A stretch of DNA of 64,000 nucleotides from Planctomycetota bacterium (GCA_036479435.1 JAZGFI010000243.1:41227-105226), one strand, 5' to 3'; counted from the stretch's first letter, positions 1,547-37,196 are shown. Translations and numbers: made by a program. The notes: generated by a model not told the origin, from the letters alone.

Positions 1547-3496
1547 TCAAAGAACTCGTCCCTTGACCAAAGTAGGAACGACGCTTGGATCGGCCAAGGT
1601 CGAAGTATCACCGAGGTCCTCGACATCCCCGCTCGCGATATTACGCAGGATGCGGCGCATGATCTTTCCGCTGCGAGTCTTTGGGAGACCGTCTGAAAAC
1701 TGAATTTGATCCGGCGAGGCGATGGGCCCGATGACGGTGCGCACGGTCTTGACTAGCTCTTTTTTGAGCCCTTCTTCGATGACGACATCGGCGTTCAGCG
1801 TGACAAAGGCGTAGATCCCCTGCCCCTTGATGTCGTGGGGATAACCCACCACCGCCGATTCTGCCACCGCGGGATGGTGGCCAAGGGCGGCCTCGACTTC
1901 GGCCGTGCCCAGCCGGTGCCCCGAAACGTTCAAAACGTCGTCGACGCGCCCCGTAATCCAATAGTAGCCGTCTTCATCGCGGCGACAGCCATCTCCGGTG
2001 AAGTACTTGCCAGGGTAAGCCTTAAAGTAGGTGTCGATGAAGCGCTGATGATCGCCGTAGATGGTTCGCATCATTCCCGGCCAGGGTTCGGTGATGCACA
2101 GGTTCCCCGACACGCCATTGCCCTCGATGATCTCGCCTTGGTCGTTGACAAGCGCCAACTGAACGCCGAAAAATGGCTTGGTGGCAGACCCCGGTTTGGT
2201 GGGAGTGGCACCGGGCAAGGGCGAGATCATGATTCCCCCGGTCTCAGTTTGCCACCAGGTGTCAACGATGGGACAGCGACCTTGCCCCACCACTTCGTGG
2301 TACCAAAGCCAAGCCTCGGGGTTGATCGGCTCGCCAACGGTGCCGAGCAGACGCAGGCTCGATCGCGACCGACTCGTCACCGGGTCGTCACCGTAGCGTT
2401 GCAAGGCTCGAATGGCGGTCGGCGCGGTGTAGAACAAGGTGACTTGGTGCTTGTCGACGACGTCCCAAAACCTGCCGACATCTGGAAAAGTCGGGATGCC
2501 TTCGAACATCAAGGTCGTAGCCCCATTGCACAGCGGGCCGTAAATGATGTAGCTATGGCCCGTAACCCATCCGATATCGGCGGTGCACCAGTAGATGTCT
2601 TCGCCAGCGCGATGATCAAAAATCAATTCGTGAGTGTAGGAAACGTAGGTGAGATATCCGGCCGTGGTGTGCAGCACACCCTTGGGTTTCCCGGTGGAAC
2701 CGGAGGTGTAAAGAATGAACAAGGGGTCTTCGGCGTTCATCACCTCGGGAGGGCAAGTATCGGCTATCGACGCGGCGGAGAGTTCGCTGGCAAAGTCATA
2801 GTCTCGGCCGTCTCTTAGACCAGGTCCCCCGCCGCTGCGTTTCACGACGAGCACGCACTCGACAAAGTCCAATCCCTCAATCGCCTGGTCAGTGGTTTGC
2901 TTGAGCGGAATGATCTTTCCTCCGCGCAGGCCCTCATCAGCCGTCACGACCATCTTGCAATTTGAATCTTCAATGCGGTTGCGCAGCGAGGTCGCGCTGA
3001 ACCCGCCGAAGACAATGCTGTGGACCGCACCGATTCGAGCGCAGGCGAGCATGACGACCGCAAGCTCGGGAATCATCGGCAGGTAAATGCAGACTCGATC
3101 GCCCTTCTTCACGCCGTGGTGCTTTAAGAGATTGGCGCAACGGCAAACGCGCTTCAGCAGTTCGGTGTAGCTGATCTTCAGATCAACGGAAGGGTCGTCC
3201 GATTCCCAAATGATCGCCGTTCGATCACCAAGACCGGCCTCGACGTGTCGATCGAGGCAGTTGACGGTGACGTTCAGTTGACCGTCTTCGAACCAAGAGA
3301 TGTCGCCACGCCCAAGATCACAGTTCATGATCTGCGTCGGCTTTTTTTGCCAGGTCAGTCGTTCGGAGACTTTTTGCCAAAACCCTGCCGGATCTGAGAT
3401 CGATTCCGCATAGCGTTTGTCGTAGTCCTCAGTCGAGGAGACATGAGCGCGTTGGGGAAATTCGGCTGGCGGTTGGAAGAGTTGTGAATCTGACAT
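1547..3496 (-). CDS. acs: acetyl-CoA synthetase
   Basis: [14 protein letters not shown]-binding loop, [20 protein letters not shown]. Confidence 0.97.
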
Positions 3497-28076: not shown

Positions 28077-29055
28077 CGATTCTCGATGTGTCATCAACAA
28101 TGTTGAGTTGAAATTGGCGCCTCCGGTGACCATGCGGCAGAACTGGATCGGCCAGGAAACCGTCTTGGAGCAACTTCTCGCCTGTTGGCTCGTCATTGAC
28201 GATTCTGATCGCCCGCTTTCGCCCCGCATCATCGGCCTCCCGGGCATGGGCAAGACGACCCTCGGGATGGCCGCAGTTGAGCGCCGCGATCAAGAGCTTT
28301 ACATCTTCCAATGCACCGCCGATACGCGCCCCGAAGACTTGCTGATCACCCCCGTCCTCTCGGAGAAGGGAAAGATCAGCTACCACGCCTCGGCTCTCGT
28401 CACCGCCATGATTCGCGGTGGCGCCTGCATCTTGGACGAAGGCAACCGCATGAACGAAAAGAGCTGGGCCTCCTTAGCGCCCTTGCTCGATCATCGCCGC
28501 TACGTCGAGTCGATCATTGCCGGCATCACCATCTCAGCGCACGAGGACTTCCGCTGCTGCGTGACGATGAACCAAGATGAATCGACCTTCGAGATACCCG
28601 ACTATATCCTGTCGCGCTTGCAGCCCACCTTGGCCATTGACTATCCCAAGCGCAAAGACGAACTCGATATCCTCAGCTACCACTTGCCCTTCGCCGAAGC
28701 CGAGATGCTCGAGCTCACGGTGGACTTTTTGCAGCAGGCCCACGAACTCAGGCTCGACTTTTCGCCCCGTGATGGCATCAACATGCTGCGCTACGCCCTG
28801 AAGCGACTCGCTCAGAATCCCGAGCACCCGCTTTCGCGCGACGAAGCTTGGCGAGAGTCTTTGGTTGCGGTTTTGGGCGAAGACGCACTCGATCTCGACA
28901 ACTTGGCCGAAAGCCGTAACCAGGTCCTCGGCACCAGTGCCCTGCCGGCGGGAATCGCAGACTTCTTCTTCGGAGGCGGAGACCCCCTCCACCCCGATCT
29001 CGATGACCTCGACGACGACGACGACGACGATGAAGACGACGAGATGATCCTGTGA
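28069..29055 (+). CDS. MoxR-like AAA+ ATPase (AAA_5)
   Basis: Walker [10 protein letters not shown], Walker [19 protein letters not shown]; poly-Asp C-terminal tail. Confidence 0.9.
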
Positions 29056-30938
29056 GTTCCGCTCGTGATCCGCATCATGATCGTCCTAACGACAAGGGCG
29101 ATGCCGCGAAGAGATTCTTCGCCCTGAGCGATCGGGTCACGTGCTTCCCCGTTCTCCACGGTAGTGCCGACTATGCCTTGGCGGTGCGCGATGAGGTATT
29201 TGCCAATCGCTACGACTGCATCGCCGTGCCCCTGCCCGACAGTTTCCGCGAGGAAGTCATCGAGTCAGTCAAACAGCTCCCTGAGGTGCGTGCGGTCGTG
29301 CAGTCGTGCGACGACGATGACACGAACTTCTCCTACGTCCCGATCGATCCCGCCCAAGCCGTCATCCGTGCCATCAGGATGGCCCTTCAAGAGCGCATCG
29401 CGCTTCGCTTCATCGACCTGGAAGTGAGAGACTGGCGCGCGGAGATGAGCGTTCATCCCGACCCCTACGCATTGAAGTCTCTTTCTCCGATGAAGTTTGC
29501 CGCCGCCGTCCTTCCGGCCCTTGAAGCTCCAAAGGCCGAAAGCATGGCGGACAAGCGCGCGCGTCACATGGCTTTTGAGCTGCACAAACTTGAACTCGAC
29601 TTCGAGCGCATTCTGTTTTTGCCGTCAATGTTGGATTGGGTTTGGATCAAACGAGCTTTTGACGAGCGCGCGGCCTTTCCCACTGGCGACGTCAGCTACG
29701 CTCCCATCAACAGCTACCCCGTCGACAAGCAGACCCTGTCTTTTTTCTTGGGCGAGCTGCCCTACATCACGCATCTCTACGAGCGCTTTCGACACGGCCT
29801 GGATGTAGAACAGTCGCTCGGCATCGACGGGGTCAAAGAACTTCTCGTCGAAACCCGAGATCGGCTCTCCAAACGCAGCCGGTCCGCGATGTCTCGAGTC
29901 ACCTTAAAGACCATGCGGATCTATCTGCAATACGTTCGCAACCTCACTTTGCTGAGACGAAGATTGCGACCGGATCTCTTCACGCTTATCGAGGCTGCCA
30001 AGCAAGTCTTCGGCGACGACTACGCCATCGAACTCATCAAGACGGCTAAGGACTACCCCGAGCAGCCCGATTTCGACGAAGCTGTCTTGAGAATGGCGCC
30101 TGGAATCGCCGACATCCCCGAGGCGGGAATGCGGCCGGTCCACAGCCGTTTACCCGGTGACCTTTTGACTTGGCGAAACATCGACCTTCACCCCGAACCC
30201 GAGCCGCCAGATCAGGCCGAGTGGACGCAGGTTTGGAACCCCCAATCCCAGTGTTCGCATCCACCGGAAGACATCCGCATCGAGAGCTTCAACCGTCATG
30301 TGCGGGAACAAGCCAAACAGATCCTCACGAGTGAGTTCGCGCACGTCGAGAAGTTTCGATCGTCGGTCAAAGACGGTATCGACATCCGGGAGACTCTGCG
30401 GAATTGGCACACGGGCGACATCTATGTGCGTGAGCTCCCACCTTCGCGCTCGGACATCGACGTCACCGTATTCTTGTTTGACGTACCCGCCGAGACCGAG
30501 CGCTACCCCTGGCGGAGTACTTGGTTCGCTGAGCACCAAAACGAATCGACCTTGGTGTTTTTTGCCACCAACTTCATGAGCGACTTGGTGGGACCTGGCA
30601 TCGCAAAGGCGACCTATGGCGGGGCCTTCTTCATCTATCCGCCGCGCCCCATCGTCGATATCTGGCAAGACCCGGCTTTTAATGACGCAAAAACACTCGA
30701 AGAACGGCTGTTGACCGGTGCCTTCGCTCACGCCAAAGAGCGCCACGTCGCCGTCGTGAGTCCAGGCACCATCAAAGCGTCATGGAGAAAGCTCGCGCGG
30801 CGCTACGGCAAGTCCATCATCCACCTTCCCCTAAACCGATTCTCAACTTCGGTGATCGACCGCCTTCGCACCTTCCACGTCCTTAACGGCAAAGAAATCC
30901 GCAGTTACGCGGCGGACTACATCCGCCGCGTTGAGTGA
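29052..30938 (+). CDS. conserved hypothetical MoxR partner protein (628 aa)
   Basis: GTGA overlap with the AAA gene; N-terminal 'FPVLHGS...IAVPLP...FIDL' and internal '[12 protein letters not shown]...VTVFLFD'. Confidence 0.8.
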
Positions 30939-33753: not shown

Positions 33754-33851
33754 GCCTTGTATTCCAGTGAGCTGATTGGAGCGAAGAGCTAAAAGTAGCC
33801 TTGAACAGGATCAGGATCGACCCGCACCATCTTGGACGAAAGCAGCGGGGA

Positions 33852-33888
33852 TAAAAAGAGACGGCATAGCCTTAGTGGCTACGCCGTC
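33852..33888 (-). terminator. intrinsic terminator after tRNA-Lys
   Basis: Minus strand GACGGCGTAGCC-ACTAA-GGCTATGCCGTC followed by TCTTTTTA. Confidence 0.65.
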
Positions 33889-33896
33889 CCTAAAGG

Positions 33897-33969
33897 TGCC
33901 CGCACCAGGGATCGAACCTGGGACCCACGGATTAAGAATCCGTTGCTCTGCCTACTGAGCTATGCGGGC
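33897..33969 (-). tRNA. tRNA-Lys(CTT)
   Basis: GCCCGCATAGCTCAGTAGGCAGAGCAACGGATT-CTT-AATCCGTGGGTCCCAGGTTCGATCCCTGGTGCGGGCA cloverleaf. Confidence 0.96.
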
Positions 33970-34026
33970 GTCCTCGTAAACCGCGGCAAGCGACCCCAAA
34001 GAGTCGCTTGCCGCCCGCTTACCGAG

Positions 34027-34101
34027 GGAGGGCGAGGGGGGTCGAACCCCCGACCTTCCGGATCACAACCGGATGCTCTAACCAACTGAGCTACGCCCTC
34101 C
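34027..34101 (-). tRNA. tRNA-His(GTG)
   Basis: G(-1)GAGGGCGTAGCTCAGTTGGTTAGAGCATCCGGTT-GTG-ATCCGG...GGTTCGAC...CGCCCTCC; G-1 and C73 as expected for His. Confidence 0.96.
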
Positions 34102-34562
34102 ACACCCTCGTCACGAAGACGAGTCATCGCTCGGGTCGGGCTTTTGTTCCCTTGCCCGAGCAACCGCCGCAACCAAGAGCCTGAGCTCCAGTTCCGACTA
34201 GGGGCGGCGTAAACTATCCAAGGCTAAAAGGAGCGTCAAGAAAGCCAGCAAAAGACTTGAGATCAGGACGGCAAATGCGGTCTCAACCGAGGCCTTAGCG
34301 CGAAGCTATCCCCGCTTTGAGCCCCGCGCAGAGGCAACATGAGATCGTCCCCACCGGTGTCGAGCCCCAGCGTTTTCAGGCCAGATGACCCATTTTTGTG
34401 GTTCTGAGGGCTAAAAACCACGGTTCTCGCAAGAATTTGGCCCCTATTCGCGATTTTGAGCCTTGTTCTGTCGGGCAAGCGACTTAGGATTTGCCGGAAT
34501 GGGCGGGAAAGCGGTTCCCAACCCTTTTGTGCAGATAACGGTCACGACAAGGAACTGGAACA

Positions 34563-34778
34563 ATGGCTAAAAAGGCAAAAAAGAAAACTAGCGGTCGCAA
34601 GAGCCTCGACACTTTGATCGTCGGCAGCAAAGTCAAAGCCGCCATCAAAGAAAACGGTTGCATGACTTCGGGTGAACTCCTCGAAGCCCTCAACAAGACC
34701 GTTCACGAAATCCTCGACGGTGCCTGCGAACGCGCGCAAAACAACAAGCGCTCCACCGTTCGCGCTCACGACGTCTAG
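34563..34778 (+). CDS. bacterial histone-fold protein with Lys-rich N-terminal tail
   Basis: Core LIVGSKVKAAIKENGCMTSGELLEALNKTVHEILDGACERAQNNKRSTVRAHDV follows the prokaryotic histone pattern; AAGGA RBS upstream. Confidence 0.88.
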   Translation: MAKKAKKKTSGRKSLDTLIVGSKVKAAIKENGCMTSGELLEALNKTVHEILDGACERAQNNKRSTVRAHDV

Positions 34779-34865
34779 AAAAAAGAGTTCGGTATTGAGC
34801 TAGTTGATCCACAGCTGGGCTTGCAGTCCGGTCCGAGGGTCGTCAAACTCATCCGCGGATGCTTT

Positions 34866-34903
34866 AACGAGCCGGTGTCGCAAGCAAACGATGCCGGCTC
34901 GTT
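34866..34903. terminator. strong hairpin between the histone gene and tRNA-Arg
   Basis: AACGAGCCGGTGTCG-caagcaaa-CGATGCCGGCTCGTT; no clear U-tract. Confidence 0.5.
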
Positions 34904-34914
34904 CATCGAGCAGA

Positions 34915-34987
34915 GCCCCCGTAGGCTAACTGGATAGACCGCTGGCCTCCGAAGCCGGAAGTTCAGGTTCGAGTCCTGACGGGGGTA
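34915..34987 (+). tRNA. tRNA-Arg(CCG)
   Basis: GCCCCCGTAGGCTAACTGGATAGACCGCTGGCCT-CCG-AAGCCGGAAGTTCAGGTTCGAGTCCTGACGGGGGTA. Confidence 0.95.
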
Positions 34988-34997
34988 CTCCGATTTG

Positions 34998-35025
34998 GGA
35001 GGTGCGCGGCGCGCACCTCCTTTTT
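34998..35025 (+). terminator. intrinsic terminator between the two tRNA-Arg genes
   Basis: GGAGGTGCGC-GGC-GCGCACCTCC-TTTTT. Confidence 0.7.
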
Positions 35026-35042
35026 CTTAGATTCAAAAATCG

Positions 35043-35116
35043 GCGCCCATAGCTCAGTTGGATAGAGCACCGGATTTCTAATCCGTAGGTCGCAGGTTCA
35101 AGTCCTGCTGGGCGTA
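35043..35116 (+). tRNA. tRNA-Arg(TCT)
   Basis: GCGCCCATAGCTCAGTTGGATAGAGCACCGGATT-TCT-AATCCGTAGGTCGCAGGTTCAAGTCCTGCTGGGCGTA. Confidence 0.95.
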
Positions 35117-35171
35117 CTTCGCGGCCCTCGCCGCTAAACTGCCATTTGATATTCGACCGCACTTGGGGCTC

Positions 35172-35220
35172 CGCAAATCTGAGTGCGAATTCTGCGAACT
35201 TATTCTTGACCGAGCCCTTA
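35172..35220. repeat. partial second copy (right end) of the MITE at 18990-19168
   Basis: CGCAAATCTGAGTGCGAA(T/C)TCTGCGAACTTATTCTTGACCGAGCCCTTA is identical to 19123-19171 except for one base. Confidence 0.85.
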
Positions 35221-36221: not shown

Positions 36222-37196
36222 ATGAAGCACCTCCGCACCAAATTCATGTCATCACTTGCCGTCTTCGCATTGGCCATGGCTCCGGCACTTGCCCAAGAGT
36301 CGGCGCCCGCCAAAGAAGAAGTCAAAAGCGTCACCTTCAAGTCAAAAGGCCTAGCCGTAAACGACAAAGTTGTCGTCACCGGCAAGTCGAGCATGAGCCA
36401 GACCATGAAGGTCGAATCCGACGGTCAAGTGCTCATGGAAAACAAGTCCAGCACGGAATCCAACATCCGCTCGACCTGTGTGGTGAAAGCAGCCAAGGAG
36501 GGCAAGCCCACCAAAGTCTCGATCGTGTTCAACAAGATCGAGATCGAAGAGGAAGACCCGATGGCTGAAATGCAGGGTGTGGAATCCAAGTCGGCCAAAG
36601 TCCAAGCCTTGGATGGCAAGTCTTTTCTCCTCAACCTTAGCGCGGCCCCCATTGCCGTGACCGACCTAAAAGGCGAGGAGGTACCAGAATCTGAAGCCAA
36701 GACCGTGCGCGAGAGATTGGTTTCAAAATCCGGCAAGTTCATTGGTTTCGGCCCCGACGTCTCCAAGGCGATCCCAGATGGCGCGATGAAGATTGGCACC
36801 AAAATCGAACTAACGCCTTACTTGATCGCCGACATCCTCGGGATGACCGATGACGATCAAATTGGTGATCCGAAAGAATTCATCAGCGGCAGCATGACCC
36901 TGACGGGAACTCGTAAGGTCTTGGGCCATGAGTGCGGCGTCTTCGAGGTCAAAATGAAGCTCGACGGTTCACCCGAAACCGAGGGCGGCCCCGAACTCCA
37001 AATCAAAGGCTCACCGACCGGAGAGTTGCTCGTGGGCCTCGAGAACAAGTGGGTTTACCGCGCCGATGCCAAGGGCGACATCAACTTTACCGGCGAAATG
37101 GAACAAGGCGAGATGATCATTGAGCTCGACGGTTCCGCCAAGATCAAGTCCAACACGGTCTCGATCTTTTCGAAAGACAAACCGAAAGCGGAATAG
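36222..37196 (+). CDS. hypothetical secreted protein
   Basis: Signal peptide ending APALAQ, GAGGAA RBS, beta-rich sequence, own terminator. Confidence 0.8.
   Translation: MKHLRTKFMSSLAVFALAMAPALAQESAPAKEEVKSVTFKSKGLAVNDKVVVTGKSSMSQTMKVESDGQVLMENKSSTESNIRSTCVVKAAKEGKPTKVSIVFNKIEIEEEDPMAEMQGVESKSAKVQALDGKSFLLNLSAAPIAVTDLKGEEVPESEAKTVRERLVSKSGKFIGFGPDVSKAIPDGAMKIGTKIELTPYLIADILGMTDDDQIGDPKEFISGSMTLTGTRKVLGHECGVFEVKMKLDGSPETEGGPELQIKGSPTGELLVGLENKWVYRADAKGDINFTGEMEQGEMIIELDGSAKIKSNTVSIFSKDKPKAE

Follow-up and report, generated by a model that had tools for sequence, protein, structure and literature searches.

An HLp-type histone gene with a lysine- and alanine-rich N-terminal tail in a Planctomycetota genome

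Results

A small histone gene within a tRNA cluster

The stretch of DNA analysed here, which we call the window, comprises 64,000 nucleotides from the genome assembly of an uncultured Planctomycetota bacterium (GCA_036479435.1; 5.47 Mb, 299 contigs, 92% complete). In the ORF listing of the window, a single ATG-initiated reading frame near the middle of the stretch encodes a protein of 71 residues and ends in a TAG stop codon (Table 1). Residues 2-14, AKKAKKKTSGRKS, include 6 Lys, 1 Arg and 3 Ser/Thr, and the chain closes with R63-S-T65-V-R-A-H-D70, an instance of the RxTxxxxD motif, followed by one last residue, V71. An earlier annotation made from the nucleotide sequence (the sequence-only reading) had given the same protein and the same tail counts, which our translation reproduces letter for letter, and had placed the clamp RSTVRAHD at the chain end, where we also find it. 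The frame is not a chance one, because all 215 of 215 database candidates from a sequence search support it at E <= 0.001 and because a profile of the family finds a member in 148 of the 301 Planctomycetota genomes sampled at 85% completeness or above (108 of the 212 high-quality ones).

Table 1. Features of the histone locus, numbered from the first nucleotide of the window
Feature	Position	Strand	Basis
tRNA-Lys(CTT) and tRNA-His(GTG), divergent, upstream	33895..34100	-	tRNA and Rfam scans
Promoter-like element, TTGTTC-16 nt-TAGGAT	34463..34490	+	Conservation across 7 loci; function inferred
Leader box GGGnGGGAAAnnGGTTCC, presumed 5' UTR	34501..34518	+	Conserved in 6 of 6 aligned relatives
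SD-like AAGGA, 9 nt 5' of the ATG	34549..34553	+	Read from the sequence
Histone gene	34563..34778	+	ORF; PDB sequence matches to HLp and HBb; AlphaFold2 model; Foldseek
Basic N-terminal tail, A2-S14, net +7, predicted disordered	34566..34604	+	pLDDT, charge, MAKKAKKK start
Helix alpha1, residues 21-30	34623..34652	+	DSSP on the model; alignment to HLp
Long helix alpha2, residues 39-60, with R57 (HLp R49) near its end	34677..34742	+	Model, alignment
L2 loop and RD clamp R63-x-T65-x-x-x-x-D70, with one-turn alpha3 at 68-70	34749..34772	+	Invariance, model
15-bp GC-rich hairpin between the stop codon and tRNA-Arg	34866..34903	+	Folding, relatives
tRNA-Arg(CCG) and tRNA-Arg(TCT), downstream	34915..35117	+	tRNA and Rfam scans

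Conserved non-coding elements lie on either side of the gene. In an alignment of 7 loci, the TTG, GTC and TAGGAT columns of the promoter-like element are invariant; a scan for sigma-70 consensus promoters called 0 sites, so it is conservation that defines this TTGnnn-N16-TAGGAT element. The box GGGnGGGAAAnnGGTTCC might act as a regulatory leader of the histone gene. It matches no Rfam family in a scan of positions 33800-35200, which returned the four tRNAs only, and its predicted hairpin, 7 pairs with 1 compensatory change, is too weak a signal for us to propose a structure. Downstream, the 139-nt spacer folds with an energy of -55.1 kcal/mol (z -4.13), and 0 of 200 shuffled sequences fold as well. 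A GC-rich hairpin occupies the equivalent place in most relatives, with compensatory changes in 6 of its 13 predicted pairs. This hairpin is probably a terminator or a processing signal; given that no T-run follows it, it may be a processing signal or a terminator of an atypical kind. The promoter-like element, the leader box, the SD-like site and the downstream hairpin together make the histone gene look like a transcription unit of its own.

The gene is embedded in a cluster of tRNA genes for three basic amino acids (33895-35117), and the same tRNA order recurs in nine related loci, six from the same family (L002-L007) and three others (L015-L017). Placed amid tRNA-Lys, tRNA-His and two tRNA-Arg genes in all of these genomes, the product could be imagined as a small basic protein associated with RNA or tRNA, with no role in chromatin. 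We find this hardly credible. The arrangement is present in 3 of 60 named loci, all of them closest relatives, and absent from the other 57, which marks it as synteny within a clade and not as a property of the histone family, and we therefore discarded it as a functional clue; the residues with which the Leptospira histone HLp contacts DNA are conserved in the protein (see below); and the hairpin separates the gene from the tRNAs downstream. Sub-threshold Rfam matches to Plastid-ycf2 and tfoR overlap the tRNAs and are regarded as artefacts. The Plastid-ycf2 5UTR matches, at 33896-33969 and 35043-35117, run antisense to two of the tRNA genes and almost certainly reflect tRNA-like sequence in the model.

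The neighbouring protein genes, housekeeping genes unrelated to the histone, encode an esterase, a YgiQ-type radical SAM protein, a YgjP-like metallopeptidase, a MatE protein and an asparaginase, and no chromatin- or modification-related partner was found among the flanking genes. Two ORFs in the window, at 29052-30938 (+, 628 aa) and 36222-37196 (+, 324 aa), have no Pfam match at E <= 0.001; the latter begins with a signal-peptide-like N-terminus.

Across the genome, the only signal for the Pfam histone model PF00808 comes from the gene described here, and no second histone was found. The genome also encodes one HU/IHF-family protein of 139 aa (contig C27; L014, 1357-1776, minus strand), and the histone is therefore not necessarily the chief nucleoid protein. 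The HU/IHF-family protein has a C-terminal extension of about 45 residues that is rich in Pro, Ala and Thr and is not basic. Two genomes of the same family, G002 (89% complete) and G008 (83%), gave no match to the histone, with the family profile included in the search, reflecting either loss or an assembly gap.

The protein is an alpha3-truncated histone related to HLp

A sequence search of the PDB places the protein close to HLp of Leptospira perolatii (9qt0; E 2.1e-13 over query residues 14-70), with HBb/Bd0055 of Bdellovibrio (8cmp/8fvx) matching at E about 1.5e-5. An AlphaFold2 model, computed from an input alignment of 48 homologues (A1), has a mean pLDDT of 80.7, with values below 50 at residues 1-3 and 6-12, and DSSP assigns to it the two helices and the single C-terminal turn listed in Table 1. 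When the model is compared to known structures by Foldseek, the best match is again HLp (9qt0_A; target-normalised TM 0.96, rmsd 0.7 A over 56 columns, 52% identity). Below it come HBb chains (38-40% identity, target-normalised TM 0.82-0.86) and then the archaeal face-to-face (FtF) histone HTkC (33-34% identity), and nucleosomal histones appear only at E > 0.1.

Alpha3-truncated histones are described as having a C-terminal alpha3 of 3-4 residues (Schwab et al. 2024, PMC11390915, cited throughout for the part of its text available to us). In our model the last helix spans residues 68-70, the chain ends at residue 71, and the fold superposes on HLp at the rmsd given above. The PDB sequence matches, the predicted structure and the Foldseek ranking thus agree that this is an alpha3-truncated histone of the HLp type, as judged by sequence and model. 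The sequence-only reading had proposed a prokaryotic histone with a truncated alpha3, citing HLp and Bd0055 (HBb) among its examples, a proposal that sequence, model and the structural match to 9qt0_A all bear out. Its further suggestion that the product is a nucleoid protein is very probably right, given this kinship.

Curated family models score the protein below their thresholds, which lie at 21.4 bits for Pfam CBFD_NFYB_HMF (PF00808; score 12.8) and at 50 bits for NCBIfam archaea_histone (NF043032; score 19.1). Such scores are probably why NCBI records label homologues 'hypothetical protein'. The link to DUF1931 that had also been suggested falls away, as the 71-aa histone has no Pfam DUF1931 match at E <= 10. 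We encountered that name solely as the depositors' label on 9QT0, and DUF1931 histones form a separate cluster according to Hu et al. 2025 (PMC12701072, likewise cited for the text available to us). A DUF1931 pseudodimer was rejected on the same ground, the protein being a 71-aa singlet.

Conserved residues suggest a probable tetramer of the FtF type

HLp reportedly forms tetramers, each wrapped by about 60 bp of DNA (Hu et al., Nat Commun 2025, PMC12701072). Its RD clamp is formed by R55 and D62, and a network of R49, N53 and R55 holds the tetramer together (PMC12701072). In FtF histones more generally, the characteristic dyad consists of an Arg at -6 and an Asn at -2 from the clamp Arg, as in R41/N45/R47 of D4GZE0 (PMC11390915, PMC12701072). 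A pairwise alignment from the PDB search relates the two proteins by a constant offset, with query numbering equal to that of the HLp paper plus 8. By this alignment the HLp tetramer residues R49, N53 and R55 correspond to identical residues in the query, R57, N61 and R63, with N61 directly ahead of the clamp. All three are invariant in the alignment of 48 homologues, whose full set of invariant columns is V20, S22, K23, V24, A54, R57, N61, R63, T65 and D70; K25 is kept in 90% or more of the 48.

The DNA-binding surface is similarly preserved. Two HLp-DNA crystals show contacts by A13, S14, K15, K17, K21, T27, G29, T56 and T57 (PMC12701072). Seven of these nine residues are identical in the query and the other two are replaced conservatively (A13 by G21, T56 by S64). 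Along alpha1, the query residues G21, S22, K23, K25 and K29 align with HLp A13, S14, K15, K17 and K21, so that the lysines expected on the exposed face of this helix in an FtF histone, K23 and K25, coincide with the DNA-contacting K15 and K17 of HLp. Some positions have changed: three HLp interface residues differ in the query (S52 to N60, T61 to H69, F63 to V71), and the dimer-core leucine L47 of HLp is C55.

These data bear on whether the protein might instead behave like HBb/Bd0055, staying dimeric and bending or coating DNA without wrapping it around a tetramer. Matches to HBb structures are significant in the sequence search, with the TM scores and identities noted above, and three residues of the HLp interface are substituted. 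HLp is, however, clearly the nearer relative (E 2.1e-13 and 52% identity, as against E 1.5e-5 and 38-40%), the tetramer residues R57, N61 and R63 that HLp uses are kept, and published surveys place Planctomycetota histones in the FtF group (PMC11390915, PMC12701072, available text). We consider a purely dimeric mode of action quite unlikely and, by analogy to HLp, infer that the protein belongs to the FtF branch and would form a closed tetramer wrapping about 60 bp.

The HLp structures suggest how such a histone would work. Two handshake dimers would close into a tetramer, meeting at the alpha2 ends, the L2 loops and alpha3, with R57, N61 and R63 taking the roles of HLp R49, N53 and R55. Some 60 bp of DNA would then pass around the tetramer without sequence preference, touched by G21, S22, K23, K25 and K29 of alpha1 and by the loop residues T35/G37 and S64/T65. 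Residues 2-13 would form a disordered Lys/Ala arm bearing all of the net positive charge. Judging from its composition, this arm most likely strengthens DNA binding by non-specific electrostatic attraction, and it may extend to neighbouring DNA.

The basic tail is most likely part of the protein

The MAKKAKKK start of the query is conserved in relatives from the same family. We compared the query with the six same-family genomes that have an orthologue, making seven loci, all of which begin ATG-GCN-AAR-AAR and carry an AGGA-type motif at about -16 to -10, some 9-10 nt ahead of the ATG. In 5 of the 7 loci a stop codon lies 1-8 codons 5' of the ATG, and two of the seven (L002 and L003) have no alternative in-frame start ahead of the core. 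Tail lengths differ among the seven, and all of the differences are in frame. A comparison of the first 8 codons gave 42 synonymous and 10 nonsynonymous codon differences; it covered six loci, L006 being set aside as nearly identical to L005. Among these loci, nucleotide identity drops from 0.84 within the opening 24 nt of the ORF to 0.39 over the 24 nt that precede it. The upstream stops, the SD-like motif, the preserved frame, the synonymous excess and the drop in identity upstream argue together that the tail is most likely translated, as the sequence-only reading had assumed.

The competing view is that translation starts at the TTG of L18, leaving the tail out of the product and making the upstream Lys codons an untranslated leader. 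The query does have an in-frame TTG at codon 18, some database homologues are 55-aa calls that begin at the position of L18, and HLp itself is annotated with two alternative starts (PMC12701072, available text). In the six relatives, however, codon 18 is CTT, CTG or CTC, so a TTG start is not conserved there; moreover, the codon changes in the tail are mostly synonymous, every change in its length preserves the frame, all seven loci have the SD-like motif ahead of the ATG, and L002 and L003 offer no other start. We regard a downstream start as very unlikely and retain the full-length, tailed protein as the probable product.

Initiation at the TTG of L18 would yield a tail-less product of 54 aa with the same extent as the 55-aa homologues. 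A Met stands at the junction of tail and core (...M-E-T-L-I-V-G-S-K) in several close relatives (loci L004 and L007; proteins P0007, P0014, P0015, P0019 and P0023). Internal initiation at this Met could let a single gene of these relatives produce a tailed and a tail-less isoform. Given the L18 TTG, the junction Met in relatives and the 55-aa database calls, a tail-less isoform of the query is also conceivable.

Basic tails are common in the family and variable in sequence

For comparisons across the family, we defined the tail as the residues ahead of the position of S14 in the query. Among the best 120 homologues listed, tail length ranges from 0 to 41 with a median of 12, 99 proteins start with M-A-K, and in 96 the tail is at least 5 residues long, with a net charge of +3 or more in 93 of these 96. 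The pooled tails of the best homologues listed are 50% Lys, 29% Ala, 5% Ser, 5% Thr and 4.5% Gly, and among the homologues of the family no tail position is conserved past the M-A-K-K start.

Tail types can also be followed by taxonomy in the 80 named genome loci, with protein starts assigned by a script heuristic that was visibly wrong in a few cases (L027, L042 and L045, for example). The 23 Planctomycetota loci divide into 15 with a basic tail, 5 with an acidic or neutral tail beginning 'MFEDAPA...', 2 without a tail and 1 with a short or other tail. Basic tails occur in 12 of 21 Myxococcota loci. Myxococcota tails are long AKK repeats in the Kofleriaceae and a short 'MAKASK' in the Nannocystaceae, among them the cultured species Plesiocystis pacifica and Paraliomyxa miuraensis. 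Patescibacteria, and MAGs labelled 'archaeon', are mostly tail-less. A FastTree built from the 58-residue cores implies at least 28 shifts of tail type, a count taken on a weakly resolved tree without a shuffle control.

These observations agree with the literature. Schwab et al. 2024 (PMC11390915) report bacterial FtF histones chiefly from Spirochaetota, Planctomycetota, Bdellovibrionota and Myxococcota, a distribution repeated by Hu et al. 2025 (PMC12701072), and Hocher et al. 2023 report that histone genes persist in Planctomycetota. In the text of the survey available to us, FtF histones mostly have positively charged tails with no conserved tail sequence, and such tails are named 'H3-like' (PMC11390915). 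The literature thus already covers the family, its occurrence in Planctomycetota and its basic tails, and the present gene adds no new class. The tail had been singled out as an unusual feature, a view that does not hold up when Lys/Ala tails occur in 96 of the 120 listed homologues and in 15 of 23 Planctomycetota loci and have already been described. It had also been proposed that tail conservation be checked among homologues. The outcome is mixed: tails are common in the family, but their sequence is not conserved, and T9 and S10 of the query are replaced in its closest relatives.

Another proposal sees in the tail a regulatory platform of the eukaryotic kind, with Lys, Ser and Thr residues that are acetylated or phosphorylated to tune chromatin, which would be compatible with an FtF assignment. 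In favour of this, the Lys-rich tail is exposed and predicted to be disordered, and it bears the whole net charge of the protein, so that neutralising its lysines would strongly alter affinity for DNA; the published label 'H3-like' also points in this direction (PMC11390915). Against this, the tails are low-complexity K/A repeats with no conserved motif, on which the available text of Schwab et al. agrees (PMC11390915). Ser and Thr are as scarce as the pooled composition indicates, both are missing from 37 of the 96 tails, and T9 and S10 of the query become Ala or Lys in its closest relatives. Tails range from absent to 41 residues and change type repeatedly on the core tree, and the genes next to the histone include no writer or eraser. 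The tails thus lack the conserved, modifiable positions that mark eukaryote-type tails, and the absence of a conserved Ser or Thr argues against a family-wide role for phosphorylation. Acetylation of the tail lysines is possible in principle. As a general account of the tail we give the platform proposal little credence, and the description of the tail as eukaryote-like cannot be upheld, with no conserved positions beyond M-A-K-K and no conserved Ser or Thr.

The tail carries all of the net charge of the protein

In the query, the tail has a charge of +7 and the core (residues 14-71) a net charge of 0, and the calculated pI falls from 9.8 for the whole protein to 6.7 for the core. Among 194 unique homologues, the mean core charge is +4.1 in tail-less proteins (n=48) and +2.26 in proteins whose basic tail is at least 8 residues long (n=110), and tail and core charge are negatively correlated (Spearman rho -0.34, kinship ignored). 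The homologues are related to one another, so p-values for this trend are overstated. With a core of charge 0 and all of its net charge in the tail, the query lies at the extreme of the trend. The direction of the trend fits, and suggests, a scheme in which the tail supplies DNA affinity that other members of the family carry on the fold.

Discussion

Bacterial histones are a recent discovery and, to our knowledge, HBb and HLp are the only ones that have been studied in depth. The 71-aa histone identified here is an uncharacterised new member of a class whose presence in the phylum and whose basic tails are already described. We think it highly probable that the gene encodes the single FtF histone of its genome, a protein that would assemble into an HLp-like tetramer, carry a Lys/Ala arm and be expressed from its own transcription unit, an account that draws on sequence comparison, the structural model and analogy to HLp.

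The closest characterised relative is HLp (9QT0, 9QT1, 9QT2; PMC12701072), which shares with the query its fold, core length and RD clamp (52% identity, rmsd 0.7 A), has the same tetramer residues and 7 of 9 DNA contacts, and is likewise encoded by a small, single-copy gene. The two differ at their N-termini, where HLp has about 6-7 disordered residues and the query has a tail of 12-13 residues with a charge of +7 (PMC12701072, available text), and at the interface, where S52, T61 and F63 of HLp are N, H and V in the query. Their genomic settings also differ: the available text describes the hosts L. perolatii and L. interrogans as lacking HU (PMC12701072), whereas the genome studied here has one HU/IHF gene. 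HLp has been studied experimentally, and the query histone is known here from its sequence and a model. HBb/Bd0055 of Bdellovibrio bacteriovorus (8CMP, 8FVX, 9EZZ) shares the alpha3-truncated fold, the S-K motif of alpha1 and the RD clamp, but is more distant (38-40% identity, E 1.5e-5) and is reported, in the text available, as a dimer that bends or coats DNA. The query falls within the group of FtF histones from Planctomycetota and Myxococcota catalogued by Schwab et al., which in the available text are alpha3-truncated, with the RxTxxxxD motif, the R/N dyad and variable basic tails (PMC11390915). Compared to the catalogued tailed members nothing about it is categorically different; it is extreme in having all of its net charge on the tail.

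The tails of eukaryotic core histones and of Asgard archaeal histones are, like those of the bacterial proteins, N-terminal, disordered and positively charged. Eukaryotic histone tails have conserved sequences with defined modification sites. The bacterial tails differ from them in being low-complexity K/A sequences of variable length, and they are attached to a different histone subfamily with a different oligomer. Lysine-rich extensions are also found in linker histone H1 and in some HU proteins, which the K/A tail resembles. By this comparison, the tail would seem nearer to the lysine-rich domains of H1 and HU than to the sequence-defined tails of H3 and H4.

The charge distribution of the query allows a more far-reaching version of the proposed arm, in which the histone fold of this clade has become neutral, the tail is the main element for binding and bridging DNA, and the tail governs the degree of compaction, with lysine acetylation as a possible switch. 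The charge trend and the repeated changes of tail type are compatible with this reading, which we nonetheless consider rather improbable. Were it correct, tail-based control of chromatin would have a counterpart that arose independently in bacteria. Our literature searches found no experimental test of a bacterial histone tail, and the present gene, with its neutral core, +7 tail and single copy, offers a clean and compact case for studying what such a tail does.

The gene is also of value for annotation. The curated Pfam and NCBIfam models miss it, which is probably why homologues carry the label of hypothetical proteins, although about half of the sampled Planctomycetota genomes have a member of the family.

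A subgroup of the family departs from the lysine-rich pattern altogether. The acidic or neutral, Ala/Pro-rich 'MFEDAPA...' tail is found in L028, L030, L032, L049, L067, L079 and L083, mostly MAGs of Planctomycetota. The cores of this subgroup have charges of +2 to +4, and in most of its loci the match lies at about 3001-3170. On a DNA-wrapping FtF histone, an acidic tail of this kind might be auto-inhibitory.
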